From the sequence record NC_048203.1: a stretch of DNA of 64,000 nucleotides, one strand, 5' to 3'. The stretch comes from Escherichia phage vB_Eco_mar003J3. Position 1 is the stretch's first letter. Each line of letters begins with the position of its first letter. This document shows, piece after piece, positions 3,344 to 58,677 of the stretch. Position numbers and translations under genes: made by a program. The notes under the pieces were generated by a model. It worked only from the letters and a program-made list of their open reading frames with translations, was not told where the DNA came from and did not search any database.

Positions 3344-4307
3344 TGTAAAAGACTTTATTAAACGTTGTCAAGAAGCGTACTACCAGGGAATGAGTCTTAT
3401 TTCCGATGAAGAATATGATCGTCTGATTAAAAGATTCCCACTAGAGGAAGAAATCGGACCGAAAGGTGATATCCCTCATTTGTATCGTATGTATTCTTTG
3501 CAGAAAGTCTATTACGATCGTGGTGATAAAGCTCCATTCAACCCACTTGGTCAGGTTGAAACTGATAAGTTAGATGGTTGTGCGATTTCTCTATTATATA
3601 TTAATGGTGAGTTTGTTCAAGCGTTAACTCGTGGTAACGGTATTCTAGGAAATGATGTAACGCATAATGTTAAAATGCTGAACATCCCCAAAACTATTTC
3701 CCAAAAAGTACCAACTCAAATCACTGGTGAAGTTCTCATTACTAAAGAAGTAGAGAACAAACGTAACTATGCTTCTGGTGCTATTAACCTGAAAGATAGT
3801 GATGATTTCATGCAACGTATTGGTGAAGGTGGTTTAATCTTCGTTGCATATGGTATCCAGTGTTCAGCGGAAACAGTCGGTATTACAGAAGCCTATTTAA
3901 AAGATATGCTTTGGCTAGAGAATGAGAACTTCTTGACAGTTGTTAATGTTCGTTCCTTTTTTAAATGGATTCCGACGGACGGTAAAGTTGTTCGTATTAA
4001 CGACAACAATAAATTCTTCCGTGAAGGTTGGACTAATAAATTTCCTCGTGGTGCATTTGCTATTAAAGAGGATGAAGAAGGCGAAATTACCACACTTGTT
4101 AAAGTTGAATGGCAAGTAGGGGCTTCTGGTAAAGTAACTCCAGTTGGTTATTTCGAGCCGGTGATTATTGATGATGCCACAATCGTTAAAGCAACTCTTA
4201 ATAACGTTGATTATATTAACGCTCTCGATTTAGAGATCGGTTGCCAGATTCGAGTGATTCGTGCTGGTGGTGTAATCCCTTGTATAGTAGAGCGAGTATA
4301 CGACTAA
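3333..4307 (+). CDS. NAD-dependent DNA ligase, N-terminal (adenylation/OB) subunit
   Basis: KLDG adenylation motif in VETDKLDGCAISL, typical LigA N-terminal region; ends before the Zn-finger/HhH/BRCT part. Confidence 0.8.
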   Translation: MMNNVKDFIKRCQEAYYQGMSLISDEEYDRLIKRFPLEEEIGPKGDIPHLYRMYSLQKVYYDRGDKAPFNPLGQVETDKLDGCAISLLYINGEFVQALTRGNGILGNDVTHNVKMLNIPKTISQKVPTQITGEVLITKEVENKRNYASGAINLKDSDDFMQRIGEGGLIFVAYGIQCSAETVGITEAYLKDMLWLENENFLTVVNVRSFFKWIPTDGKVVRINDNNKFFREGWTNKFPRGAFAIKEDEEGEITTLVKVEWQVGASGKVTPVGYFEPVIIDDATIVKATLNNVDYINALDLEIGCQIRVIRAGGVIPCIVERVYD

Positions 4308-18953: not shown

Positions 18954-19396
18954 TTAAAATTAAACTAACTCATCCAGATTGCATGCCAAAGATTGGTTCT
19001 AATGATGCCGCAGGTATGGATCTGCGTGCATTCTTTGGTACTAACCTTGCAGCAGATTTACGTGCTATTGCACCAGGCAAATCCCTTATGATAGACACCG
19101 GTGTCGCGGTGGAAATTCCGCGAGGTTGGTTTGGTTTGGTAGTTCCTCGCAGCTCTTTAGGTAAGCGTAAACTGATGATCGCAAATACCGCAGGAGTGAT
19201 CGACTCAGACTACCGTGGTACTATTAAGATGAACCTGTTTAACTACGGTTCTGAAATGCAAACTCTGGAGAATTTCGAGAGACTTTGTCAGCTAGTGGTA
19301 CTACCACACTATTCAACCCATCATTTTGAAATCGTTGACGAACTAGAGGAGACTGATCGTGGAGAAGGCGGCTTTGGAAGCTCAGGAAGTAAGTAA
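18950..19396 (+). CDS. dut: dUTPase
   Basis: Canonical dUTPase motifs AAGMDLRA, RSSLGKRKLMIANTAGVIDSDYRG, C-terminal RGEGGFGSSG. Confidence 0.9.
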   Translation: MIKIKLTHPDCMPKIGSNDAAGMDLRAFFGTNLAADLRAIAPGKSLMIDTGVAVEIPRGWFGLVVPRSSLGKRKLMIANTAGVIDSDYRGTIKMNLFNYGSEMQTLENFERLCQLVVLPHYSTHHFEIVDELEETDRGEGGFGSSGSK

Positions 19397-19412
19397 TTTT
19401 GCAGATCCTAAT

Positions 19413-19625
19413 ATGATAGGAGTAGATGTAGATCAATCTAATTTTTACAAGATTGATATTAAATACGTTGAACCTGAGAAAATAGTATTGAGGGTTGATG
19501 TATCTGGTGTAGTAGAGCAGTGGGATGAAGAGGGATTTATCGCACTTTGCACTGAATCTCAGGATCCTATGCTTAAAGCTATGCTAGCAGTGTATAACTT
19601 AGGTATTATTGCAGGTAGTAGATAA
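19413..19625 (+). CDS. hypothetical small protein
   Basis: ATG 19413 after dUTPase stop; weak RBS. Confidence 0.3.
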   Translation: MIGVDVDQSNFYKIDIKYVEPEKIVLRVDVSGVVEQWDEEGFIALCTESQDPMLKAMLAVYNLGIIAGSR

Positions 19626-19632
19626 TAATAAA

Positions 19633-19664
19633 CCCCAGTGGATTATCCACTGGGGTTTTCTTTT
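19633..19664. terminator. bidirectional intrinsic terminator between convergent early and late units
   Basis: CCCCAGTGG-ATTA-TCCACTGGGG hairpin with T-run on + strand and A-run before it. Confidence 0.7.
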
Positions 19665-20931
19665 ACTTAGAACTTCTTAGTGCATTAAGTTCTCTCTGCA
19701 TATATTCTAACTGTTCCTTATAGTCCACTATTTGTTTTTGTAGTTCCTGTACAACTGTGATAATATCAGCCATAACAGCCTTATCATTTACGTTTAGAAT
19801 CTCAAATTCTTTTCCATTATCATCTACAGACTGACCCCCACTAAAAACATAAATAGGGTCAATAGCTTCCATCTGCTGTGCTAAATACCCACGCTGGGGA
19901 ACTACATTTCCTTTATATGTGAATTCTACAATCCCTATTTGTTCAATTCGTTCCCACGCACCCGATTTCGGCAATTTAAAATTGTCTTTGATACGAACAT
20001 CAGAACCTTGAATAGCAACTTGCCCTAAAGGAGTATGCATTGTGCTGTCCGCTCGCATAGAATACCAGAGATTTATATTATCAGATCTTGTTAATTGCCA
20101 TGTATATTGTGCGACTCCATCTACAGTATAAATGTAGTTGGCTACCGTACAGTCAGAGTTTTCAAGATGGGATAACTTGTTATGTCTAACACCGTCTAAC
20201 GACTCTTGGCTTTTTAGCTTTACAATTGTAGCAGTGTATGCGTCAGAATTCCCAAAAAGTGCTCGAGCTACAAGGTTTGATTGTGTTTCTAATCCATTCT
20301 GTGGTAGTAAAGTCCCTGGTATATAAAGGTGTCCATTAGAATTAAAACGCATTACTGCTGTATTTGTTCCATGTGCTTCAACCCTTGCTTCGGTAATTCC
20401 ATTTCCAATTGCTGCTTGTGCGTAGAAATCTGCACTAAAGTTATCGGTAGCTCCTACTTTATACTTTGAACTAACTCTGCCACCACTTACTACAGTATTC
20501 ACTGGGGGTAATACTGCATCGGCATTGTTAACACTCCAAGAAGTATTTGCCGCAACAAAACCACCAGATGCACGAATAACCCAAACACCAACAAAACTAC
20601 GTGGCAATATGTTGTTTTTTATTGAATATTTTCCATAGACTCCATCACTGGCCCCAGCGTTAATTGTTAATACTGCGTTGTTTCTTACTCTGCTAAAAGT
20701 ACCATCATTAGGTAAAAATGTATCTTCAACTGCAGAATTATATCCGAAAGCTCCGCTTACAGCTTTAGGTGCTGGTTGCCAAACTTTTCCGCTTGTATCG
20801 TTTGCTGCCGTACCATAAATATTAGGTGCTGCCGCTTCATAGACACGCCCATCTTCGGAAGAATTACCACCATCACCACGCCCAAAAAGACTTAACGTAG
20901 AATTTGGTTGCGCACCGTTCCGGTCAGGCAC
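19663..20931 (-). CDS. distal L-shaped tail-fibre protein (LtfB-like), C-terminal segment with intramolecular chaperone domain
   Basis: C-terminal ...AVMADIITVVQELQ... matches the C-terminus of the neighbouring fibre protein; listed start is GTG and the frame is open upstream to an in-frame TAG at 21013-21015. Confidence 0.8.
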   Translation of the reverse strand: MPDRNGAQPNSTLSLFGRGDGGNSSEDGRVYEAAAPNIYGTAANDTSGKVWQPAPKAVSGAFGYNSAVEDTFLPNDGTFSRVRNNAVLTINAGASDGVYGKYSIKNNILPRSFVGVWVIRASGGFVAANTSWSVNNADAVLPPVNTVVSGGRVSSKYKVGATDNFSADFYAQAAIGNGITEARVEAHGTNTAVMRFNSNGHLYIPGTLLPQNGLETQSNLVARALFGNSDAYTATIVKLKSQESLDGVRHNKLSHLENSDCTVANYIYTVDGVAQYTWQLTRSDNINLWYSMRADSTMHTPLGQVAIQGSDVRIKDNFKLPKSGAWERIEQIGIVEFTYKGNVVPQRGYLAQQMEAIDPIYVFSGGQSVDDNGKEFEILNVNDKAVMADIITVVQELQKQIVDYKEQLEYMQRELNALRSSK

Positions 20932-48555: not shown

Positions 48556-48773
48556 TGTTTAGTTTTGTAGCTATCTTCATTATTGGGGTACTTGCGGGAA
48601 TCTTCGGAACACTCGGGGCGATTAATAAGCATCGTGAATATATTGTGGGAGTATCGCGGGAGCTTTCGGAAAGGGAGCGGAGGTTTGCAGAAAAACGGGA
48701 GGAGTTCGAGCGAGAGTGGAGTGCTGGCTCAAGAAGCTCTCGTAGGAGATTTAAGATAGATGACAAATCATAA
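48555..48773 (+). CDS. small membrane protein (72 aa)
   Basis: N-terminal TM helix then charged Arg/Glu-rich tail. Confidence 0.45.
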   Translation: MFSFVAIFIIGVLAGIFGTLGAINKHREYIVGVSRELSERERRFAEKREEFEREWSAGSRSSRRRFKIDDKS

Positions 48774-49257
48774 GCCCTTACTTCCCTTAGAGGAATACCA
48801 GAGTAAGTTCGATTATGATCCAGAAACAGGTATATTTACTTGGAACTCGGGGAGTCGTAGAGGTAAACCAGCTGGCGGCCGTAATGACTCGGGCATTTCC
48901 CTTTCTATGGGCAGCAAAGGCAAGTATAAGGCCCACCGAGTGGCGTGGTTATACATGACAGGGGAAGATCCAGGAGATCTTCTAATAGATCATAAAGATC
49001 AAGACCCCTGGAACAATAAATGGAACAACTTACGAAAAGCTACGAATAAAGAAAATAGTAATAACTCTTCCGGATGGGAAAATAAATCCACAGGTGTAAA
49101 AGGGATATATAAGAGGACAGAAGGGAAGTTCGAGGCGAGAATACGTGCTAACGGGGAAAGAATCAACGTAGGTACATTTGGTAGCCTCGAGGAAGCTGAA
49201 AGTGCGATAAGGGAAGCACGTGAGAAAGTATGTGGTGAGTTCACAAACCACGGTTAA
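48760..49257 (+). CDS. HNH homing endonuclease with AP2-like domain
   Basis: Paralogue of ORF 7601..8131 (shared YDPETGIFTW / HKDQDPWNN motifs). Confidence 0.75.
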   Translation: MTNHKPLLPLEEYQSKFDYDPETGIFTWNSGSRRGKPAGGRNDSGISLSMGSKGKYKAHRVAWLYMTGEDPGDLLIDHKDQDPWNNKWNNLRKATNKENSNNSSGWENKSTGVKGIYKRTEGKFEARIRANGERINVGTFGSLEEAESAIREAREKVCGEFTNHG

Positions 49258-49374
49258 TAGCGCTAATTTGAAAATCTTGAAATTTCATAAGATTACACAT
49301 GCGGATGTGCTCAGTGGGACTGGAGATAGTTAGTAGTCTAATAATCCCCCTGTGTTACTATTACCATGCTAACT

Positions 49375-49413
49375 GTTTCATCCTGTAACCATTTTTTAAT
49401 TACAGGATGAAAC
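49375..49413. terminator. bidirectional hairpin between convergent genes
   Basis: Perfect 14-bp inverted repeat GTTTCATCCTGTAA ... TTACAGGATGAAAC with 11-nt loop; T-rich on + side. Confidence 0.6.
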
Positions 49414-49430
49414 TATTTTATTTTTAATTG

Positions 49431-50165
49431 TTAGGCAACTTTTAATTTATCAATGAATTGTTGCGGAGCGGTACTATAGTCTCCCCTTTCTTCCTCAGTC
49501 ATACCCTGCCAGCACATTTCTAAGCGCTGGCAAAGATATTGATAATCATTATCATCATCTAACGATTCATCAATAAAGGTTTCACCGATCAATGCTACGC
49601 CGATTGATAGGATATCGTTAACGGCTTGGGCGTCCAGTGTTTTGAATCCAGCACTTGCCGCCACCGATAATACGCCTTTATGATCATCAATCATCGTAAA
49701 ATCAGCGTTTGGATATAGCTGTTTAAATAGTTCAAAGTAATAGCTTTTGTATACAGCGTCTTTGCTGTGGTATATTTCGCTAACCTTATCCGCTTCAAAG
49801 TATTTGTGTAATGTATCGCGGGAGAATACGCGGATATTGCTATTTCCGCGCCCTCGCAAGCCTTGTTTACGCAAATAAAAGTAATCGCTTTTAGACATAA
49901 GGCGCGCGGTACAAATAACATTTAAAGTATTTGCATCATTCATACATTGGCGCATATATTCAACCAACGGCAATAAAGAATCCTGCATAATTAAATCATG
50001 TTTACAGGCTTCGCGGGAATACTTATTTAAATTTAAATTCCCGTTATCATCAAAGCAAGGCGCTACACGATGGAAAGAATTAATGATTGTGCCGTCCAGA
50101 TCCCAAATCATGACGCGGGAAATATGCGGGAAATTATGGGTAATATTCGTTTTAACTTGATTCAT
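49431..50165 (-). CDS. dmp: 5'-deoxyribonucleotidase (Dmp-like, HAD-type)
   Basis: 244 aa (the size I recall for T5 Dmp); WDLDGT HAD motif I. Confidence 0.8.
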   Translation of the reverse strand: MNQVKTNITHNFPHISRVMIWDLDGTIINSFHRVAPCFDDNGNLNLNKYSREACKHDLIMQDSLLPLVEYMRQCMNDANTLNVICTARLMSKSDYFYLRKQGLRGRGNSNIRVFSRDTLHKYFEADKVSEIYHSKDAVYKSYYFELFKQLYPNADFTMIDDHKGVLSVAASAGFKTLDAQAVNDILSIGVALIGETFIDESLDDDNDYQYLCQRLEMCWQGMTEEERGDYSTAPQQFIDKLKVA

Positions 50166-50245
50166 TTGTTACATTCTCCATTTAAGGGATCTAGGTTAAT
50201 TCAGCATTACCCGCTATTTATAAGCGGGTAATAATAAATTAACTA

Positions 50246-50638
50246 TTAAAGACCATACGCCAACGCATCAGCGATAAAACTAATATCCTCACCTGATACA
50301 CTGGAACGAATCCCCGCGCAAGTGTAGACCTTTGCAGACATAAGAGCATTATCAAGGCAAGCGGGGCATGGCGCGACAACTGCAAACGCTAGACCTGATT
50401 TTACAGCGTCAATAATAACAGTTTGCTCTTTTACGGTATCAATATAAACGCCTTTTGCTTTTGTATGGCTTGACGCTTTACCGGTAATGTATGCAAATGT
50501 TGTTACCTGTAGCGCCTCGTTAAAGTCTAGCAGTTCATCAATAATATGACCCGATTCAACGTGATAACGCTCGCCATTAGAATAAACTAGAACGATGGAA
50601 GAAGTAGCGTGATCAAAAGGAATGTTTTGGTTTTTCAT
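50246..50638 (-). CDS. hypothetical pre-early protein (130 aa)
   Basis: ORF between A1-like and dmp genes with GGAG RBS; contains PCPAC motif; function unknown. Confidence 0.55.
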   Translation of the reverse strand: MKNQNIPFDHATSSIVLVYSNGERYHVESGHIIDELLDFNEALQVTTFAYITGKASSHTKAKGVYIDTVKEQTVIIDAVKSGLAFAVVAPCPACLDNALMSAKVYTCAGIRSSVSGEDISFIADALAYGL

Positions 50639-50682
50639 GTTTAAAACTCCAGATTATTTAATTAACTTTTTCGGGAATATAA

Positions 50683-50700
50683 GCGGGGAATATTCCCCGC
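50683..50700. repeat. 18-bp perfect palindrome GCGGGGAATATTCCCCGC (copy 1)
   Basis: Lies in a 30-bp segment identical to 52705-52734; between the A1-like gene stop and the next gene. Confidence 0.9.
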
Positions 50701-50713
50701 TGATTAAATTTAA

Positions 50714-52378
50714 TTAGGCAAAGAATTTGCCATTTTTGAAATCAATCAAGGTACGTTGACCGTTTGCATATGTAATTAAATGCGTTTGCGTCCAGCTTGA
50801 CGCGCCAACGTTGTAACCCATATCGAGACTACCAGCAACGCCAGCGGTATAAACGCCGCCGTATATACTAGCCGTGTGAGTGTGGCCCGTGTTGAGGCGT
50901 CCTAACTTTTTAAACTGTTTAGGATTGCCCCGACTGCCGTTAATGCCGTTGTGACCATGTACACCGCATTCAATTCCTGCAATCTTGAAAGATTGGTCAG
51001 TAGTCAGGAAAATAGCGTTAAATTCGCAACCTGCAACGTTTCTAAGCGCATAATCCAATACGTTAAAGGTATCATCTTGTTTTGCAATAGCCGCATAAAT
51101 CGCAGCGTTTAGGCTGTGATACAGTTCGGCGTTTGCGGGGTCGTCTTTAATGTTAGCGTTACGATCATCAAGCCAACGGGATAACGCCAAATCATGATTG
51201 GATTCCACGATGATTGTTTGAGAAAAATCGCGCTCCATTGACTCCAACACGCGACCGGTATCAATGAGATCGTCAATAACTTTATCACGTCCGGCGGCGT
51301 ATTGTTTCGCAAGGAATACACCACTTGCGCGGTTGTGATGGTTACGCGATGTAAAATCATGCACATCATGAATAAACTGATATTTCGGTTTAAGAATATC
51401 AAGCAAGCTATTTTCGCCCACCCATGATGCAACGGCGCATTCATCATCTAATTTTTCGGCGTGAATATCGCCATATTGCAAGCCTAGAACATGATCGGAC
51501 GTTTCAAAACATCCGGTAGGCATAGCGCAAATATTCAAATCATAAAACATTCCGCTTTCATCCATTGTTTCAAGCTGGCGAACAAAAAATTCGCCGTCGT
51601 CGTCAAATTCTACCAACAAAGCGCCGTAATTATGCAGCGCCTCAGCTTTTTGACCTGCTTTCTGCTGAATATAGTTTTTAAGTGTAGCCGTTCCGGTGGA
51701 GTACATACGGCGCACTACTTCACCTTTTAACGCTGGCACACTTTCAGCGGTAATTTTAGCGTGACCAATTGCCAGACCTTCAATATTTAAAGCCGTGGCG
51801 GTTTCTGCGAATCCTGAAAGCGGATAGTCTGCCGTTGGTAACACGTTAATTTCAGCCATGAAAGCAAAACGGCGATTATTTAAAAATACGTTTTTCTCGC
51901 AAATATATTTATTAAATGCGGGATCGTATTTAATGCCTTCGTTACCTTCTCCATTCTGGAAGCCGTTTTTATTGTAAATGAATTTACTAACCAGCAATTC
52001 ACCGCCGATATATTCAGCGAATTGCTCAAGCACTTTCAAAAAGTTTTTATGTGGGAAAGTATTATTTTGAATCGACGTTAGAATAAAACGGCGACCGGAT
52101 TTAACTTCCCACTGTTCCACGGTACTAGAAACAATCCCCGCCGCTTCTGGGCGATCATCATTTTTAATCGCCTTTTCAGCTTTTGCCGCTTTCGGTTTCG
52201 CTGGCTTATTTGCTTCCAGCCAGTCACAAATTGCGGTCGAATGTTTCGGCGTGTCATAAACAGCTTTTGAAATATCGTCACAAACTTCCAATTTAGTAGC
52301 GCGTAAACGCTTGCCATAGAAATTAAAATCAGCGGCAAGTTTAGTGATCTGGGACTGTTTTTCTGCGGAAATATTCAT
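50714..52378 (-). CDS. A1: pre-early A1-like metallophosphoesterase
   Basis: 554 aa; calcineurin-like motifs GDIH, HDVHDF, ESNHD, GVHGHNG, GHTH; adjacent to dmp as in T5. Confidence 0.8.
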   Translation of the reverse strand: MNISAEKQSQITKLAADFNFYGKRLRATKLEVCDDISKAVYDTPKHSTAICDWLEANKPAKPKAAKAEKAIKNDDRPEAAGIVSSTVEQWEVKSGRRFILTSIQNNTFPHKNFLKVLEQFAEYIGGELLVSKFIYNKNGFQNGEGNEGIKYDPAFNKYICEKNVFLNNRRFAFMAEINVLPTADYPLSGFAETATALNIEGLAIGHAKITAESVPALKGEVVRRMYSTGTATLKNYIQQKAGQKAEALHNYGALLVEFDDDGEFFVRQLETMDESGMFYDLNICAMPTGCFETSDHVLGLQYGDIHAEKLDDECAVASWVGENSLLDILKPKYQFIHDVHDFTSRNHHNRASGVFLAKQYAAGRDKVIDDLIDTGRVLESMERDFSQTIIVESNHDLALSRWLDDRNANIKDDPANAELYHSLNAAIYAAIAKQDDTFNVLDYALRNVAGCEFNAIFLTTDQSFKIAGIECGVHGHNGINGSRGNPKQFKKLGRLNTGHTHTASIYGGVYTAGVAGSLDMGYNVGASSWTQTHLITYANGQRTLIDFKNGKFFA

Positions 52379-52476
52379 ATATTAATTAACTCCATTAAAG
52401 GGATTTAAAACATTTTAAAGCTGGCAATATTGCCAAATATAACGCCGTTTATTTACAGCGTTATAATTTGCAACAT

Positions 52477-52674
52477 TTAACTAATCGGCATTAGGCTAGA
52501 ACTTACACCAAGAGCAACGGCGGCAATAAAACAAATAAGACCTAAACTCTTTGCGAATTTAGATTTATGCTTAAAATAATATGAATCTAAATCATTTTGA
52601 AAATAAGCGAATAATAATGAGGCCGCCATAATAAACAAGCCTAGAATGAGGGATTCACTAGGAAAGAAGATCAT
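52477..52674 (-). CDS. small membrane protein (two predicted TM helices)
   Basis: ATG at 52674 (MIFFPSESLILGLFIMAASLL...); between A2-like and A1-like genes. Confidence 0.45.
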   Translation of the reverse strand: MIFFPSESLILGLFIMAASLLFAYFQNDLDSYYFKHKSKFAKSLGLICFIAAVALGVSSSLMPIS

Positions 52675-52704
52675 TTTAATAACTCCGGTCAAAGGGAAAT
52701 TATA

Positions 52705-52722
52705 GCGGGGAATATTCCCCGC
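52705..52722. repeat. 18-bp perfect palindrome GCGGGGAATATTCCCCGC (copy 2)
   Basis: Identical 30-bp context to copy 1; followed on - strand by TATAAT. Confidence 0.9.
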
Positions 52723-52731
52723 TGATTAAAT

Positions 52732-53166
52732 TTATTCGCCTGCGGCCTGTTTTACTTCATCGACAACGCCTAACAATTGCGCCATGGCTTCCAGCGTTTC
52801 CAGTTTTGCACTTTCCAAACTTGCCAGATCGTCGGCGTCTTTGATAATGCCTGAATCAATGGCGTGTTTAGCGATAACGCGCACATAGTGAGCTTTACGG
52901 ATTGAGCTACCGCCGCCAACTTTGCGCGGCTTGTCGCTTTTCTGGTAGGCTTTTGCACTGGTCAATTTAGAACGTACAGAGACAGGGGAAGCCGCGCCAA
53001 CGGCGGCGGCGATTTCTTTTAAGCCGTCACTGTTAGCAAATTCAACGCCATTTTTTTCGATCATTTCAGAATACAAAGAGACAGCTTTCTGCGTGTTTTC
53101 TTCATTCCAAGAGAATTTTGCGGCTTTTTCGGTTTTAACGTTAGACATAGTAAATACTCCGTTCAA
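52732..53166 (-). CDS. pre-early A2-like protein (putative)
   Basis: 144-aa ORF upstream of the A1-like gene, size close to the ~15 kDa I recall for T5 A2; assignment by synteny only. Confidence 0.45.
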   Translation of the reverse strand: MNGVFTMSNVKTEKAAKFSWNEENTQKAVSLYSEMIEKNGVEFANSDGLKEIAAAVGAASPVSVRSKLTSAKAYQKSDKPRKVGGGSSIRKAHYVRVIAKHAIDSGIIKDADDLASLESAKLETLEAMAQLLGVVDEVKQAAGE

Positions 53167-53247
53167 TTATTAATTAAGGGATTATGATTAACTAATGTTA
53201 ATCGTTATATTGCCCATATTTCAGGGCAATATAAAAGTAACACTAAT

Positions 53248-53499
53248 TTATGCTATGGCTTGCCATTTATCATCTTTCTGAATGACCTTTACAACGTCGC
53301 CAGATTTAACACGGACGGTATAAATCGGCTTGCCGTGGTTACTGCGTTCCGTTTCCGCGTAGACCGCTTCAATCTTATCAAAGGGATCAAGCGCCGCACC
53401 TTTAATACGTTCGGCTTTTCCGGTTAATTCATCCGTTTTAGTTACAAAAGGAATGAATACAGATTGACCTACTTTCGGCGCGGTAATAACGTTTTGCAT
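53248..53499 (-). CDS. hypothetical pre-early protein
   Basis: 83-aa ORF with GGAG RBS. Confidence 0.5.
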   Translation of the reverse strand: MQNVITAPKVGQSVFIPFVTKTDELTGKAERIKGAALDPFDKIEAVYAETERSNHGKPIYTVRVKSGDVVKVIQKDDKWQAIA

Positions 53500-53632
53500 T
53501 TTTAATACTCCGGTTTATTGGGGATTATTCCACAATAGCGCCTCGATACTTTGAAACGCTATTAGATTATAATCCGCTAGGAGTTAGCCTAAACATTACC
53601 GTTATCCAAATTGTTAAAGAGCAGTTACTACG

Positions 53633-53655
53633 GGGAACATCTTAAAACCTATCGG
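53633..53655. repeat. 23-bp inverted repeat, left arm
   Basis: GGGAACATCTTAAAACCTATCGG; reverse complement of 53907-53929 with one mismatch. Confidence 0.85.
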
Positions 53656-53663
53656 CTAGCGTG

Positions 53664-53873
53664 TCAAGCGTTTTTTAAACTTTTTTCGATTTGATGGGAG
53701 TTATATAAATCAATCATTATATTACGCCACACCATTTCCAGCCCTTGTTGCTTGCCTTTCTTGTATTGCTTGAATCTGTATTTTACAGATCGTTGCGCTA
53801 CTGTCAACAAATTTTTTGTTCTGCTATCAAGCGACTTGATAGGCTTGCCAGTGATCAAAAGCGTTTGTTTCAT
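53664..53873 (-). CDS. hypothetical small basic protein
   Basis: 69 aa, Lys/Arg-rich, RBS AAGGAA; ORF sits exactly between the two arms of the 23-bp inverted repeat. Confidence 0.45.
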   Translation of the reverse strand: MKQTLLITGKPIKSLDSRTKNLLTVAQRSVKYRFKQYKKGKQQGLEMVWRNIMIDLYNSHQIEKSLKNA

Positions 53874-53906
53874 ATCGTCGATTCCTTATAATATCTAAGT
53901 TTACCG

Positions 53907-53929
53907 CCGATAGGCTTTAAGATGTTCCC
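53907..53929. repeat. 23-bp inverted repeat, right arm
   Basis: CCGATAGGCTTTAAGATGTTCCC. Confidence 0.85.
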
Positions 53930-54028
53930 TAATTTTTAAAGAGCATGGCAGGGTTTTGAAAGGTCAAACAGACTGTCAATCGCTGTTATCCCCGCCGTGT
54001 AGTTCGTCATTGCCGCCCTACGTGATAA

Positions 54029-54057
54029 ATAATAGGAGAATACCGAGAAGGGCGCAA
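54029..54057 (-). promoter_or_regulatory. candidate sigma70 promoter for the - strand pre-early operon
   Basis: On - strand TTGCGC-17 bp-TATTAT about 150 nt upstream of ORF 53873; weak call. Confidence 0.3.
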
Positions 54058-54280
54058 GCGTATTTTTGTAAAGAAACGTAAAGAAAACCACTACTCGCAA
54101 ACGTCCAGCGGCGCATTAAATTTAATGAAACGGGCGCGCGAATAACACCAAAACAACCATTTTAGCAAGTAATTTTTTCATTTATATCTGCTCTAGGGTA
54201 CTTGACAAAATCTAAAATCCTCGTGGTGAGGTTTTCTCGGTGTACCCCTTATGATTGCCTATCTTTTCCTTTGAGGCGCT

Positions 54281-54307
54281 TAGAATGCGTTACAGAGCGT
54301 TTTAGAC
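54281..54307. repeat. 27-bp direct repeat, copy 1
   Basis: TTAGAATGCGTTACAGAGCGTTTTAGA, identical at 57704-57730. Confidence 0.85.
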
Positions 54308-54521
54308 CCTGTTAATAACTTATACAAAAAGCAAAAATGAAATTTAATGAGTTATCCACTTGATTTTTCAAAAAAGTATTTTCTGCTGTTATTTTTCATT
54401 GACAAATAAGTCTGGACGTGTATCAGATCGTTAGCAGACTAATAATCGCTAGGATGATAATCACGCTGGTGGATTGTAACGGCTGAAATCATTAGCAGAC
54501 TATTAATCAAGGAAAATCCTA

Positions 54522-54552
54522 TTAGCCAACTAACTATTTCATAATATATAAT
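54522..54552 (+). promoter_or_regulatory. T5-type promoter (weak -35)
   Basis: TATAAT followed by ATACATATAAATTAATGAGAAAT conserved downstream box; about 430 nt upstream of ORF 54982. Confidence 0.45.
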
Positions 54553-54636
54553 ATACATATAAATTAATGAGAAATAATAAATATGAGAAACTATCGGGCT
54601 AAGTGAGAACCACTATCATTTAACTTATACCCAAAG

Positions 54637-54645
54637 TTATCCACA
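54637..54645 (+). promoter_or_regulatory. DnaA box (TTATCCACA)
   Basis: Exact match to the consensus 9-mer. Confidence 0.5.
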
Positions 54646-54685
54646 GCACAAAATAACTTGACGCAATAGGCGACGTTTTGGCGAC

Positions 54686-54694
54686 TTATCCACA
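54686..54694 (+). promoter_or_regulatory. DnaA box (TTATCCACA)
   Basis: Exact match to the consensus 9-mer; part of inverted repeat A. Confidence 0.5.
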
Positions 54695-54714
54695 GACTTA
54701 TATACAGGTTATCC

Positions 54715-54734
54715 TACTGTATAAATATACAGGG
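54715..54734. promoter_or_regulatory. LexA/SOS-box-like palindrome
   Basis: TACTGTATAAATATACAGGG fits CTGT-N8-ACAG; part of inverted repeat A. Confidence 0.4.
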
Positions 54735-54981
54735 TAGAATGGTAGCAGTAACAACCGCAATCAAATTTAAGCGGCCTAGAACGCGCTACACGGCGTTTTC
54801 TCACTGCTGCCCTTATTATAATAAAGCCTTGTGTACACTTACAGAGTGCTAGAAATAGAAAACGCGCGGATATCATAAAAACAGGCAGTAAGCAAGGAAT
54901 AAAAAACCTTTTCTTTTTCCTTGCCCCTAGCGAACAAATATCTATATCATTCACTCACCGATTAACGAGGGAGACAAAGAA

Positions 54982-56007
54982 ATGTCTACTGTAAGAATTG
55001 CAGTACCAGCAAACGCCACTATTATTAAGGGTAGTTTGCGCAACCTGCTAGACGGATCAAGTCTAGCAAGCCTACAGCTAGACGGATCAAGTCTAGCAAG
55101 CCTACAACATACGGCGGCAATGGTTGAAAAGATTCACGATGAAATTTTAGATAATAATGATACTCATTATTGTTTAAGTGATTTCACACAATTACTAGAC
55201 CCTACCCGCGTTCTAGTGCTTTACAACCGTGACTATCACATCATGCGAAATCAGCGGGGAAGAGATATTGATTTTATCATTGTAGGTCACGACGAAAAAA
55301 GCTATATTGCCCGTGGTTACAATGTACAAGAAAAAGAAATGGTTTTCGCTACTCGCGTAAATGGTATTAATTCCAGCGATGTAGAAGATTTACTATCTAG
55401 TATTTGTGGCGAATTGACAAGCGCCATTAAACGTGCTGATAGTTACGCAATCGAAACAACTGGCGTATTGTGTTTTGGACGCGCTAGAGGTAACATGTTG
55501 ATCCCTAACGATTATTTAGAGTATGGGAATGAATCAAACGTTGCAAACGCTGGATTTACACTTTTACCGCTTGACAATGTAACAAAACAGGCTGTACAAT
55601 CTCAAACTTCAAGCGCAAATGCGCAAACTACTGAAAATAAAGGAAATATTATGTCTAAAGTATCTTCTATCGTTGCTGCTAATAAATCCGCCGTTGTAAA
55701 CGCTGCTAAACTGGAAGTGGGTAAAATTGCACTGACTCAAGTCACAAAAGTAGCGGCGAAAAAAGCACCGTTTATGATTAAAGGGTATATTGATACGCCG
55801 ATTGGTCGTGTAGTGATCGCTAACCTGCTGAGTGTAGCGGTTGACCAGTACGCCCCGACTAATGCGAAAGCTAAAGCGGTAGCAGGCGCGGCAATGGAAG
55901 CGGCAATGTTGGAAATGGTACAAAGTTTCAATATTGCTGAAATGATCGATGAAATGGTAAAAGGTATTGACATTTCAACCTTTACCCAAAATGCTGAAAG
56001 CGAGTAA
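54982..56007 (+). CDS. hypothetical protein (341 aa) with internal 10-aa tandem duplication
   Basis: RBS GAGGGAG; N-terminal LDGSSLASLQ x2; possible internal start MSKVSSIV after AAAGGAAA. Confidence 0.6.
   Translation: MSTVRIAVPANATIIKGSLRNLLDGSSLASLQLDGSSLASLQHTAAMVEKIHDEILDNNDTHYCLSDFTQLLDPTRVLVLYNRDYHIMRNQRGRDIDFIIVGHDEKSYIARGYNVQEKEMVFATRVNGINSSDVEDLLSSICGELTSAIKRADSYAIETTGVLCFGRARGNMLIPNDYLEYGNESNVANAGFTLLPLDNVTKQAVQSQTSSANAQTTENKGNIMSKVSSIVAANKSAVVNAAKLEVGKIALTQVTKVAAKKAPFMIKGYIDTPIGRVVIANLLSVAVDQYAPTNAKAKAVAGAAMEAAMLEMVQSFNIAEMIDEMVKGIDISTFTQNAESE
55048..55107. repeat. 30-bp tandem duplication, two copies
   Basis: CTAGACGGATCAAGTCTAGCAAGCCTACAG / ...ACAA, one mismatch. Confidence 0.9.
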
Positions 56008-56035
56008 TAATTAGTCTAATGTAAAGTTTTGTAAA

Positions 56036-56061
56036 GGTCGCCCTAATCGGCGGCCTTTTTT
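56036..56061 (+). terminator. rho-independent terminator
   Basis: GGTCGCC-CTAATC-GGCGGCC hairpin followed by TTTTTT. Confidence 0.65.
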
Positions 56062-56125
56062 GTTATAATGCCTTTACACCGAAACGGTGGATTGAAAATT
56101 TTCCCCGATTTCTAGGAGGCGTTAA

Positions 56126-56353
56126 ATGGTACATTCATCATCTTCTGCAATTTTTAATGGTATGGAATGGGTATCCGTTCCCACTATTGTAAGCGTTATG
56201 GTTTCGGAGTTTGGGATTGGTAAAACTTATGTTACCATTCAGGAGCTTTACGACAATGACAAGATTGATCAGCAAACAGCCGGATTTTTGCTGGATGAAT
56301 TGAAAGCTAACCACTGCACCAAAAAGCAAGCGGCAAAAATTGTTTTAATGTAA
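56126..56353 (+). CDS. hypothetical protein (75 aa)
   Basis: RBS TAGGAGG. Confidence 0.5.
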   Translation: MVHSSSSAIFNGMEWVSVPTIVSVMVSEFGIGKTYVTIQELYDNDKIDQQTAGFLLDELKANHCTKKQAAKIVLM

Positions 56354-56360
56354 TTAATAA

Positions 56361-56388
56361 CGGGGCGTTACTTTCGCCCCTAATTTCT
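56361..56388 (+). terminator. hairpin / partial terminator
   Basis: GGGGCG-TTACTTT-CGCCCC followed by TAATTTCT. Confidence 0.5.
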
Positions 56389-56401
56389 AGGAGCTAATAA
56401 A

Positions 56402-56551
56402 ATGGTTATTTTTCGATCAGTTCTAGCAGGTATCTTGGGCGCTATTTTATCGTTGTTTGCAATAGCTTTCGGTGTTCATGCCGTTATTATCGGCGCGGGT
56501 ATCGCGGGGTTTTCTTACCTGTTAGGCTGTATGACTGGTAAAGGGGGATAA
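56402..56551 (+). CDS. small membrane protein (49 aa, two predicted TM helices)
   Basis: RBS TAGGAGCTAATAAAATG; hydrophobic Gly/Ala-rich sequence; below ORF-track cut-off. Confidence 0.45.
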   Translation: MVIFRSVLAGILGAILSLFAIAFGVHAVIIGAGIAGFSYLLGCMTGKGG

Positions 56552-56553
56552 AA

Positions 56554-56766
56554 ATGTTAAAAAATGTAAGCCTTGCCCGTTCTAAAGGTTTTAAGCTGGT
56601 GGATGTTAACACGTTCGAGCGTCCAGATTGTAAAATCGAATATGTAGCACGCAACAAAAACGCGTTTCGTGTTACAGAAAAGAAATTTGACAAGCGCGGC
56701 AATTTGGTAGCCGAAACGGTTAAACACTTTGCCACCTTTTACGCTGCGTTTCGGGGAGTGTTATAA
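56554..56766 (+). CDS. hypothetical protein (70 aa)
   Basis: RBS AAGGGGGA; tightly packed operon. Confidence 0.5.
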   Translation: MLKNVSLARSKGFKLVDVNTFERPDCKIEYVARNKNAFRVTEKKFDKRGNLVAETVKHFATFYAAFRGVL

Positions 56767-56767
56767 A

Positions 56768-57112
56768 ATGGTAATTTACGAGGGCAACCGATTTGTAACT
56801 AATTGCCGTCCGGCATTATTAGCAAACTATTTAAATCAGCTTTCACCAGTTTATAAAGGCGTGGTTAATATCTATGAGGGCAAAGCACATTATAAAATTT
56901 CTGCCGTTGTCGCCCGTGAACTAGCGTTTCAATTTTTAACTTTTGGGTCTTGTGACGTTCAGGTTATGGGGGAAGCGTTAATAGCGGAAAATGAAAATGA
57001 ATTTATTGACATTTTCCGCAAAGTATGTACAGAGCGCCTGATTATGAAAGGCGCGTATATTCAATCAACCGCTGAAAGTATCGAAACAGCGTTTCGAAAG
57101 GTGGCGCAATGA
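56768..57112 (+). CDS. hypothetical protein (114 aa)
   Basis: ATG 56768 with GGGAG RBS; inside ORF-track frame 56729..57112. Confidence 0.5.
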   Translation: MVIYEGNRFVTNCRPALLANYLNQLSPVYKGVVNIYEGKAHYKISAVVARELAFQFLTFGSCDVQVMGEALIAENENEFIDIFRKVCTERLIMKGAYIQSTAESIETAFRKVAQ

Positions 57113-57294
57113 CTAGAAATGAAGCTGTTAAAGCTATGTTAGAAGGTAAAAAAGTAACTCATCGTTATTTTTCCATGCATGAATATTTATTCATGAAATA
57201 TGAAGTGATCACCACGGAGGATGGTTATAAATTTAATCATGAATTTTATAGCCGTGAAATGTTTAATGATGGCTGGCAGCTTTATTATGAATAG
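57109..57294 (+). CDS. hypothetical protein (61 aa)
   Basis: ATGA overlap with upstream gene; RBS AAGGTGG. Confidence 0.45.
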   Translation: MTRNEAVKAMLEGKKVTHRYFSMHEYLFMKYEVITTEDGYKFNHEFYSREMFNDGWQLYYE

Positions 57295-57420
57295 CTGGTG
57301 GCGAAAAACACAAAGCCATAAATCTAATAATACCGCTGGGAAACATTCCCAGCGTTTACGATTTGGTAATGGCTTCACAATGATATTGATAATCATTCTC
57401 ATTCTAGGAGCAATGGCGTT

Positions 57421-57615
57421 ATGAGTGATAAAATTGTTGTAACTAAAACTACTGTTACCGTTGATACTTTCTTTGTGCCTGATACGCTGGAAAATCGGCA
57501 AGCGGTGGAGCGTGGCGATTATGATAAAGTGATTTATGATAACGATGGTTACTATCAACATTTGGTAGACTCCTACGGCGAAAGCGAAAAGATCACACAT
57601 CGACTACCAGACTAA
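57421..57615 (+). CDS. hypothetical protein (64 aa)
   Basis: RBS AGGAG; followed by terminator. Confidence 0.5.
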   Translation: MSDKIVVTKTTVTVDTFFVPDTLENRQAVERGDYDKVIYDNDGYYQHLVDSYGESEKITHRLPD

Positions 57616-57621
57616 TAATAA

Positions 57622-57650
57622 CGGGGCGCAACTATCGGCCCCGTCTTTTC
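57622..57650 (+). terminator. rho-independent terminator
   Basis: CGGGGC-loop-GCCCCG hairpin followed by TCTTTTCT. Confidence 0.7.
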
Positions 57651-57703
57651 TGGCCTTCCTCAAATTTCCCCTTATTAAAATACCTCCGCCAAAAATAAAC
57701 GCG

Positions 57704-57730
57704 TTAGAATGCGTTACAGAGCGTTTTAGA
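57704..57730. repeat. 27-bp direct repeat, copy 2
   Basis: Identical to 54281-54307. Confidence 0.85.
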
Positions 57731-57760
57731 GCTATATTAGAGTTATTCACTACGCAGGAA

Positions 57761-57780
57761 TACTGTATAAATATACAGTA
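57761..57780. promoter_or_regulatory. LexA/SOS-box-like palindrome
   Basis: TACTGTATAAATATACAGTA: one mismatch from the idealised SOS box TACTGTATATATATACAGTA. Confidence 0.45.
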
Positions 57781-57788
57781 GAATAACC

Positions 57789-57809
57789 TGTTGATAAGTC
57801 TGTTGATAA
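57789..57809 (-). promoter_or_regulatory. two DnaA-box-like 9-mers (TTATCAACA)
   Basis: TGTTGATAA at 57789-57797 and 57801-57809; one mismatch from TTATCCACA. Confidence 0.35.
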
Positions 57810-57861
57810 CGCCCCAAAATCGCTAGGATTTTGTCAAGTCAAATCGTGCTGTTAATAAACC

Positions 57862-57870
57862 TGTGGATAA
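57862..57870 (-). promoter_or_regulatory. DnaA box (TTATCCACA on - strand)
   Basis: TGTGGATAA, exact consensus. Confidence 0.5.
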
Positions 57871-57902
57871 CTTAAATAACAGTGTTTCTCACTTCGCTTT
57901 GT

Positions 57903-58044
57903 AAATGCGAGTCATTCTCATTATCATTAGCGTTTCCCTTCCTAAATGCAAATCATTCTCATTCGTATTCCGGTAGTCAAATGATAACTGTTCTCATTCG
58001 CATTCAACTTCTCAAATGCGAATCATTCTCATTATCATTCGCAT
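57903..58044. repeat. four direct repeats of AAATGCGAATCATTCTCATTatCATT-like unit
   Basis: Copies begin at 57903, 57944, 57979, 58013 (period ~35-41 bp). Confidence 0.8.
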
Positions 58045-58053
58045 TTCGGCAGG

Positions 58054-58076
58054 CAGGGCAATTTGCCCTGCGCTTT
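58054..58076 (+). terminator. palindrome plus T-run (terminator-like)
   Basis: CAGGGCA-ATT-TGCCCTG followed by CGCTTTTG. Confidence 0.45.
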
Positions 58077-58077
58077 T

Positions 58078-58677
58078 GTGCAAATCCGACATTTGCCCCC
58101 ACGGATTACGTGCCAGTGTGCATGTGCGAATCCGACAATTTTTGGTAGTGTGCAAATCCGATGGGAAATATTTTTTATATGTGCGAATCCGACAATGAAT
58201 TTTCCTAAAAACTCCAGCAATCCGCAACTGCGATGCAATCCAGCTGGATTTACTAGAATATGTGCAAAACCGACAAGTGTTAAGGTGTGCGAATCCGACA
58301 AGATTTTTGTGACTTCGATTGGAGGGTGTGTGATTGTGTGGGTTTGGGGAGAAGTGCGAATCCGATGAGATTTTGGGAGGAACTACGGAAGGAGCAGCGG
58401 TGATGGTGCTTTAGCACCGATTTGCTGCATTTTTGGGGATAATGCGGGATGTTTTGGCTAGAATTGAGATTAGTGGAGATAAAGCGAAATTTTATTAGCA
58501 AAATGGGGCAAAATCGCTTGACAAGTGAAAATTCCTGTGGCTCTAAAAACTCAGGCAATCATGGGCCTTCGGCCCGAAATAATGCTGCTATTTTCAGTGT
58601 TCCTAAAAACTTTGGAGACTCCTATCAATGTGCAAATCCGACCATAAATTTCTAGAAACATAATGTGCAAATCCGAT
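58078..58677. repeat. iteron-like array: nine copies of (T)GTGCRAATCCGAYA
   Basis: Copies at 58078, 58124, 58150, 58181, 58262, 58287, 58354, 58630, 58665, all same orientation, irregular spacing. Confidence 0.85.

Follow-up and report, generated by a model that had tools for sequence, protein, structure and literature searches.

Within the leftward pre-early operon of Escherichia phage vB_Eco_mar003J3 (NC_048203.1), of which a stretch of 64,000 nt was analysed as a whole (hereafter the window), an identical palindrome stands twice, just after the A2-like gene and just after the A1-like gene, raising the question of whether it is a site on the DNA or a structure in the transcript. An initial annotation of this sequence had left several answers side by side, namely an operator for a dimeric regulator, an RNase III-type processing hairpin, and a target of pre-early shut-off. 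We found that the element, called palB here, most likely shapes mRNA rather than binding a regulator. Its best explanation, to which we assign a probability of about one half, is an intercistronic mRNA stem-loop, which we infer to hold back 3' exonucleases or to form a stable end left by processing, perhaps with weak attenuation of transcription.

The duplicated palindrome and its slot in the operon

In an exact search of the whole window, the 30-mer GCGGGGAATATTCCCCGCTGATTAAATTTA occurs in exactly two copies (50683-50712 and 52705-52734), compared with no match in 100 dinucleotide-preserving shuffles, and the 18-bp palindrome GCGGGGAATATTCCCCGC is found at the same two sites alone, even with up to three mismatches allowed. 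The initial description of a 30-bp element containing an 18-bp perfect palindrome in two copies thus holds, the true repeat being 31 bp when the identity between copies is read directly from the sequence (50682-50712 = 52704-52734). A repeat search extends the copies to 40 bp at 90% identity (50673-50712 and 52695-52734), into a C-rich patch and, via an indel, to a downstream TTCCC. The distance from the stop codon to the palindrome is 13 nt for A1 and 9 nt for A2, whose TAA (52734-52732) lies inside the repeat, in line with the earlier estimate of about 10 nt after each stop on the - strand. On that strand the palindrome is directly followed by TATAAT at the A2 junction and by TTATAT at the A1 junction, the -10-like hexamers noted before, and no U-run follows either copy, which agrees with the earlier view that this is not a canonical terminator.

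Transcribed from the - strand, the A2-junction copy reads AGCGGGGA-AUAU-UCCCCGCU, a G+C-rich stem-loop with an 8-bp stem (six G-C pairs) and a 4-nt loop, and has a folding energy of -15.4 kcal/mol (z = -4.9 vs shuffles). The values for the A1-junction copy are -15.2 kcal/mol and a z of about -4.9. Rfam covariance models gave no match at either copy at E <= 1 in a scan of positions 49000-58500.

The region is 89-94% identical to many T5-like phages of Salmonella and E. coli (Demerecviridae), whose annotations name A1, A2, and a deoxynucleoside-5'-monophosphatase; the search against GenBank yielded roughly 460 T5-like genomes. The leftward pre-early order, all on the - strand, is a T5.007-like open reading frame (ORF), A2, a small membrane ORF, A1, a T5.002-like ORF, and dmp. 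T5 (AY543070, AY587007) has the same gene order, located in the terminal repeat, the first part to enter the cell, and its mapped pre-early promoters (P-D/E20, P-H22; T5P1-P3) all lie upstream of A2. This gene order and these promoters place both copies within the leftward pre-early transcription unit, where the initial annotation had put them.

The element also recurs in other T5-like phages. The T5 record AY587007 contains a misc_feature (3697-3718) called "palindrome B" and labelled there without function. It occupies the same place as the A2-junction copy in the window, between A2 and the small membrane ORF at 9 nt past the stop, and reads GTGGGGAATATTCCCCAC and then TATAATTTCCCTTTGAC, with the same downstream sequence and, relative to the window, a compensatory change of C-G to U-A. 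By its flanking genes, offset, and alignable sequence, the window copy at 52705-52722 is the ortholog of T5 palindrome B. T5 differs from the window in having only one palB copy, its A1 gene being followed by the hairpin TAGCGGCT-TGAGATA-AGCCGCTA and then by the extra gene T5.003. The same record labels the hairpin after ORF002 "palindrome A", and the palindromes discussed in a later paper (Davison 2020) are only those of the injection-stop region, C-J.

Over 141 nt, the A1 junction with palB shows 100% identity to about a dozen GenBank records, which represent about seven distinct phages (bastian, atrejo, SP76, rutana, IrmaTschudi, PMBT27, and PMBT22), and 90%-99% identity to many further ones. 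These matches indicate that the duplication is common to a published clade, mostly Epseptimavirus. Elements of this kind are well known; of the two copies, the one at the A2 junction corresponds to a feature annotated in T5, and published genomes already contain the A1-junction duplicate.

A wider comparison comprised 37 IMG/VR loci, 4 metagenome loci (the sole contribution of a metagenome scan), 6 GenBank phages, and T5. In these relatives, A2 is followed either by palB or by an unrelated longer hairpin, UUGCCCCCUU...AGGGGGCAA. The A1 slot holds at least six hairpin types, namely UAGCGGCU...AGCCGCUA, GGCGGU...ACCGCC, AAGCGGGGUAUAUACCCCGCUU, AAGCUGGAAAUACUUCCAGCUU (two double compensatory changes apart from the preceding one), CCUCCAAUUA...UAAUUGGAGG, and palB. 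Across the compared relatives the A1 and A2 proteins are 84%-95% identical, and a site that either protein recognised by its sequence would not be likely to undergo such swaps. More distantly, G+C-rich hairpins again follow the A2-like gene, A1, and several neighbours in Klebsiella phage Sugarland, whose A1 is 73% identical, and in a Vibrio phage (34%). Most of these lack a U-run, as in GCCGGGGCAAUUGCCCCGGC followed by AAUAAAU, the hairpin after the Vibrio A2-like gene being an exception.

How the two copies in the window came to be identical is suggested by the leaders in front of them. Sister phages have GCGGGG-TATATA-CCCCGC at the A1 junction with the same TAAATTTA leader, and the ATCAG leader variant is present at both junctions in the window and bombadil only. 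Judged from these sequences, the 31-bp identity is best explained if recombination or gene conversion homogenised two paralogous junction modules in one phage clade. The junctions might even be module boundaries without a function of their own, that is, repeats used for, or left over from, homologous recombination that shuffles pre-early cassettes. This would fit the extra genes found at the A1 junction (T5.003 in T5; ORFs in the relatives L003-L005, L012, and L026), the paralogy and apparent conversion of the A1- and A2-junction modules, and a further copy in the other operon of L003 and L004. Neutral leftovers, however, would not keep their pairing through compensatory changes, nor would they be replaced by similarly stable unrelated hairpins at every junction across genera, and we regard a boundary without function as improbable, although recombination at the junctions can hold in addition to a function of the RNA.

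Compensatory pairing and the sense strand

Evidence for a structure in the RNA comes from 22 distinct sequences of the palB family, compared over a 9-pair helix. In the helix 96.5% of cells are paired, compared with 49%-59% when the partner is slid by one to three columns, and in five of the nine pairs both partners have changed. The helix scores 0.287 for covariation, vs 0.109 +/- 0.019 for shuffles, of which 0 of 500 attain the observed value; this count is not a probability since the sequences are related.

The strand is indicated by one-sided changes, all three of which give G·U pairs in the sense of the mRNA (window - strand) and A·C on the other strand; they are found in SP_Thor (A2 junction), L013 (A1 junction), and misterkot/bobsandoy (A1 junction). 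For the neighbouring hairpin after the 130-aa ORF, the ratio of G·U pairs in sense and antisense is 63/25 and 21 of 26 variants fold more stably as the sense strand, and for the hairpin after dmp the corresponding values are 68/3 and 24 of 27. Both the slid controls and the independent replacements of hairpins agree with the covariation, and the overall evidence from sequence favours a structure in the mRNA, neither a DNA site nor an antisense RNA. A conserved slot that is filled by unrelated hairpin sequences, with compensatory and G·U changes, points to an RNA structure and not to a sequence-specific operator. A terminator on the antisense strand was considered as well: a terminator scan lists both copies on the + strand, but the + strand tails score 0.8 and the wobble pairs favour the - strand RNA, and this candidate was rejected.

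The same changes bear on the operator proposed in the initial annotation, which would bind a dimeric regulator such as the A2 protein, and on a promoter that would use the adjoining TATAAT or TTATAT. Such readings draw on the perfect 18-bp dyad, on the perfect TATAAT next to one copy, and on the annotation of A2 as a DNA-binding protein; nevertheless, we consider them very improbable. The slot is occupied by an unrelated hairpin in phages in which A2 is 84%-93% identical and A1 about 90%, and where the palB arms change, they do so in a compensatory manner, including G·U pairs that work only in the sense RNA. The copies also lie away from the mapped pre-early promoters, and neither shows a promoter-like site.

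A promoter at the -10-like hexamer noted in the initial annotation is not supported. According to PMC3326045, promoters of the T5 type combine TTGCTw at -35 and TATAATA at -10 with AT-rich flanks, a pattern that the palB region does not resemble. A scan gave no -35 partner with at least 4 of 6 matches for either -10, and the best candidate by eye, TAATCA, has 3 of 6 at a spacing of 18 nt, with the G+C-rich palindrome as the spacer. In relatives the hexamer becomes TATCCC (bombadil, bobsandoy, and SP_Thor), TAAACT (L030), or TATTTT (L021 and L029) with the hairpin kept, and in the Tequintavirus Bas33, for which expression values are given below, the gene after the A2 junction has fewer transcripts per million (TPM) than A2.

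An RNase III processing site, also raised in the initial annotation and known from between the early genes of T7, is the least probable of the readings weighed here. As with the T7 sites, host polymerase transcribes a first-expressed operon of a lytic phage in which each cistron has its own structured element, and in T7 the processed 3' hairpins stabilise early mRNAs. RNase III substrates require a helix of roughly 20 bp, about two helical turns. The T7 sites have such a helix of roughly 20 bp with an internal loop, whereas the stem is only 8-9 bp in palB and at most 17 bp in its neighbours. A duplex of 20-23 bp would require the two identical copies to pair over a long range, which is impossible in phages whose two junction hairpins differ. 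The operator was thus rejected on hairpin replacement and compensation, the promoter on the -35 and -10 evidence, and RNase III on the length of the stem.

Six hairpins, probable read-through, and the intercistronic cassette

The palB copies do not stand alone. For 81 ORFs of the window, chosen greedily, we examined the next 60 nt downstream, and all six leftward pre-early cistrons have a hairpin of -14.6 to -21.4 kcal/mol beginning 4-17 nt past the stop, compared with 14 of the other 75 ORFs (P = 1.2e-4). Half of the 14 hairpins outside the operon have at least five U in the next 8 nt, as canonical terminators do (e.g. at 56033-56058 and after 30984), vs none of the six in the pre-early operon. 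The hairpin at 52431-52472, after the small membrane ORF, is kept in relatives with compensatory changes. Features expected of a stabilising stem-loop are found, namely a stable sense hairpin 3' of the cistron, no U-tract, and conservation of the structure and not of the sequence.

The main rival is a leaky intrinsic terminator that would release part of the polymerases after A2 and A1, graded A2 >= A1 >= dmp, a possibility that we consider unlikely on balance. In its favour is the shape of the element, a G+C-rich stem followed by an imperfect U-rich tail (UUAUAUU or UAUAAUUU) with four to five U in 7-8 nt. Tail scores were calculated with a d'Aubenton-Carafa/TransTerm-style formula and came to 1.1-2.6 for palB, 0.7-1.4 for the other four pre-early hairpins, and 3.5 for the canonical terminator of the region at 56033-56058; with the 8-bp stem counted, palB scores 1.1-1.9, and the A1-junction tail scores 2.6 if the stem is counted as 7 bp. 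The palB tails UAUAUUCC and AUAAUUUC lack the U-run of an intrinsic terminator, and the terminator scan of the - strand does not list the full 8-bp palB hairpins, its sole match at these sites being a 5-bp inner stem (50698-50686). Moreover, the operon's other five hairpins, like those of Sugarland, have nearly U-free tails, such as AGUUAGCA and AAUAAAU, and the A2-junction copy stands upstream of the essential A1 gene, to which T5 annotations give no promoter of its own.

Transcript levels are available for Bas33, sampled 20 min after infection and given as TPM ("max group mean") in the supplement of PMC13250531. In the order of the operon, they are 12199 for gene 0179, 5207 for A2, 1171 for 0181, 4925 for A1, 1143 for 0183, 4425 for 0184 (T5.002-like), and 2218 for dmp. 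The values for A2, A1, and 0184 are about equal, suggesting that most transcription or RNA survives across these junction hairpins, and those for A2 and A1 would tell against a leaky terminator between them. These data are compatible with stabilising hairpins with or without weak attenuation and argue against efficient termination. As a separate observation, the TPM of the operon's two shortest genes, 0181 and 0183, is about 4-fold below that of both neighbours (PMC13250531), which could be a counting artefact for short genes or a sign of segment-specific RNA decay between hairpins. A literature search found no transcript-end mapping of pre-early RNAs for T5-like phages.

Each palB hairpin is also part of a larger intercistronic cassette, in which the stop codon is followed by an AU-rich spacer, the hairpin, a UCCCUU patch, GGAG, and the start codon of the next cistron. 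Equivalent patches on the - strand start at 53181, 52697, 52403, 50676 (a UCCCG variant), and 50189, 2-26 nt upstream of the GGAG Shine-Dalgarno sequence of the next cistron, and precede A2, the small ORF, A1, the 130-aa ORF (TCCCG variant), and dmp, respectively. Matches to the pattern TCCC[TG]-N2-26-GGAG-N4-12-start number five in the leftward pre-early operon and only two elsewhere in the 64 kb. The patch is conserved in relatives, with CCCAU in Klebsiella phage Sugarland, and RNAfold predicts a weak pairing of UUCC with GGAG. In the genomes compared, the architecture of hairpin and patch is conserved from Epseptimavirus to Sugarlandvirus, Tequintavirus included, and more loosely in a Vibrio phage. 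Our literature search did not find a U-less hairpin with a UCCCUU patch after every pre-early cistron described.

A third copy of the palB cassette is found in the IMG/VR relatives L003 (1990-2045) and L004 (near 1650), on the strand opposite to A2. In L003 it belongs to the divergent rightward pre-early operon, is oriented with the transcription of that operon, and reads from the stop of a 333-aa ORF through TAGCGGGGATTATTCCCCGCT and TTCCCTTTTAGTTAGGAG to the ATG of a 181-aa ORF; the part after the hairpin consists of UUCCCUUUU, AGGAG, and ATG. As this copy follows the direction of its own operon, the hairpin is part of a portable intercistronic module. The equivalent junction has a canonical U-tailed terminator in the window (56033-56058) and in T5.

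If palB is an intercistronic stem-loop, host RNA polymerase would start at the strong pre-early promoters upstream of A2 and would mostly read through the hairpins, since no U-tract follows them. The 8-bp G+C-rich hairpin would fold 9-13 nt past the stop of the finished cistron and would block 3' to 5' exonucleases or form the stable end of a processing product. In this way the hairpin would govern how long the cistrons last and how much they yield relative to one another, and the hairpins may also release a minor fraction of the polymerases as weak attenuation.

Several known systems resemble this arrangement in part. Intercistronic hairpins of the REP type protect upstream RNA from 3' exonucleases. 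Like palB, those of malE-malF are G+C-rich sense-RNA hairpins just after a cistron that lack a U-tract and allow read-through, whereas palB lies outside the REP sequence family and is present as one hairpin per cistron, coupled to UCCCUU and a Shine-Dalgarno sequence. In T4-type phages, the promoter-early stem-loop (PeSL) cassettes are repeated stem-loops between early genes, for which recombination has been proposed. They share with palB the short repeated stem-loop module and the variable gene content but include a functional early promoter, for which there is no support at palB. Rho-independent terminators likewise have a G+C-rich stem and a 4-nt loop after a stop codon; unlike these, palB is without a U-tract, and essential genes downstream of it need read-through.

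Some findings weigh against a stabilising stem-loop in the mRNA. The palB copies in the window are perfect palindromes, which alone cannot distinguish RNA from DNA or sense from antisense, and the strand evidence consists of three variants in relatives and of the neighbouring hairpins. In L051, which has a T5-type A1 hairpin of another family, a C·A mismatch falls on the sense strand, and the A1-junction class overall folds slightly better in antisense, owing to weak flanking pairs. The L003/L004 cassette stands in the place of a canonical terminator and has a more U-rich tail, UUUCCCUUUU, and in Bas33 the TPM falls roughly 2-fold across two other junction hairpins. Both observations also speak for a leaky terminator, and this terminator swap and these drops fit partial termination and stabilisation equally. 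In addition, Bas33 is a different phage, sampled at 20 min (PMC13250531), and it probably carries the other hairpin type after A2, as judged from an 89-nt spacer only.

The cassette might also be the target in cis of the A1-dependent shut-off of pre-early expression, at which a phage factor or a polymerase modified by pre-early proteins would act, either through factor-dependent termination or through cleavage of the RNA by an endoribonuclease. In the window the cassette is specific to pre-early operons, with a hairpin after every cistron, and PMC10644984 describes the mechanism of shut-off as unknown. However, the hairpin sequences vary, so that a factor would have to recognise a shape and a short C-patch, and ordinary stabilisation of the mRNA explains the same architecture. 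We give this proposal little credence, less than the recombination boundary discussed above.

Features of the operon and implications for T5-like phages

The features discussed here are listed in Table 1. The coordinates of A2 are those of the mechanical ORF, and the real start is probably the ATG at 53148. Pfam gave no match for A1, A2, dmp, or the 130-aa ORF.

Table 1. Genes, stem-loops, and repeat units of the leftward pre-early operon in the window.
Feature	Position	Strand	Remarks
83-aa ORF (T5.007-like)	53499..53248	-	Pfam DUF7177
Stem-loop after 83-aa ORF	53197..53241	-	6 nt past stop; dG -15.9 kcal/mol; tail with 4 U in 8 nt; first of six
A2-like gene	52732..53166	-	Mechanical ORF
40-bp repeat unit, copy 2	52695..52734	-	A2 stop TAA, AU-rich spacer AUUUAAUCA, hairpin, UAUAAUUUCC
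palB stem-loop, A2 junction	52704..52723	-	18-bp perfect palindrome 52705-52722
UCCCUU patch	52692..52697	-	Between A2-junction hairpin and GGAG Shine-Dalgarno of next cistron
Small membrane ORF (T5.005-like)	52692..52477	-	
Stem-loop after small membrane ORF	52431..52472	-	4 nt past stop; dG -16.9 kcal/mol; tail with 3 U in 8 nt
A1-like gene	50714..52378	-	554 aa
40-bp repeat unit, copy 1	50673..50712	-	UAAAUUUAAUCA, hairpin, UUAUAUUCCC
Second palB stem-loop, A1 junction	50682..50701	-	18-bp palindrome 50683-50700
130-aa ORF (T5.002-like)	50638..50246	-	
Stem-loop after 130-aa ORF	50197..50241	-	Counterpart of T5 "palindrome A"; dG -20.0 kcal/mol
dmp	50165..49431	-	
Stem-loop after dmp	49375..49413	-	Operon end; 17-bp stem; dG -21.4 kcal/mol; tail AGUUAGCA, no U-run

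The last of the six hairpins, after dmp, has a counterpart in T5 that the record AY587007 calls a putative terminator. In T5 and SA001, the physical left end of the genome lies only about 120 nt past the dmp stop, and given this short distance, the hairpin may protect run-off transcripts rather than terminate transcription. Just past the dmp end of the pre-early region, a 165-aa ORF (48760-49257, + strand) matches in size and position an ORF of Salmonella phage bobsandoy (L044) that is annotated as an "HNH homing endonuclease", and would adjoin the presumed boundary of the terminal repeat.

The junction between A1 and the 130-aa ORF is a hot spot of gene content variation among the relatives L001-L039. 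It has no insert in the window and about 10 further loci, and elsewhere a T5.003-like ORF or other small ORFs, and the insert always follows the A1 hairpin. Far from the operon, a perfect bidirectional terminator-like hairpin at 19626-19662, AAACCCCAGUGGAU(U/A)AUCCACUGGGGUUU, with -21.7 kcal/mol and U-rich tails on both strands, sits between the convergent ORFs 19359-19625 (+) and 19663-20931 (-), indicating that the phage uses canonical terminators outside the pre-early operon.

For the biology of T5-like phages, the result mainly removes the more exotic reading of an operator or promoter-coupled palindrome. The cassette is a modest but testable lead for the post-transcriptional control of the first-step-transfer genes, and its combination of hairpin, C-patch, and Shine-Dalgarno sequence offers a concrete, mutable target for the questions of T5 shut-off and relative expression. 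If the cassette were the target of shut-off after all, it would explain the unsolved A1-dependent shut-off.

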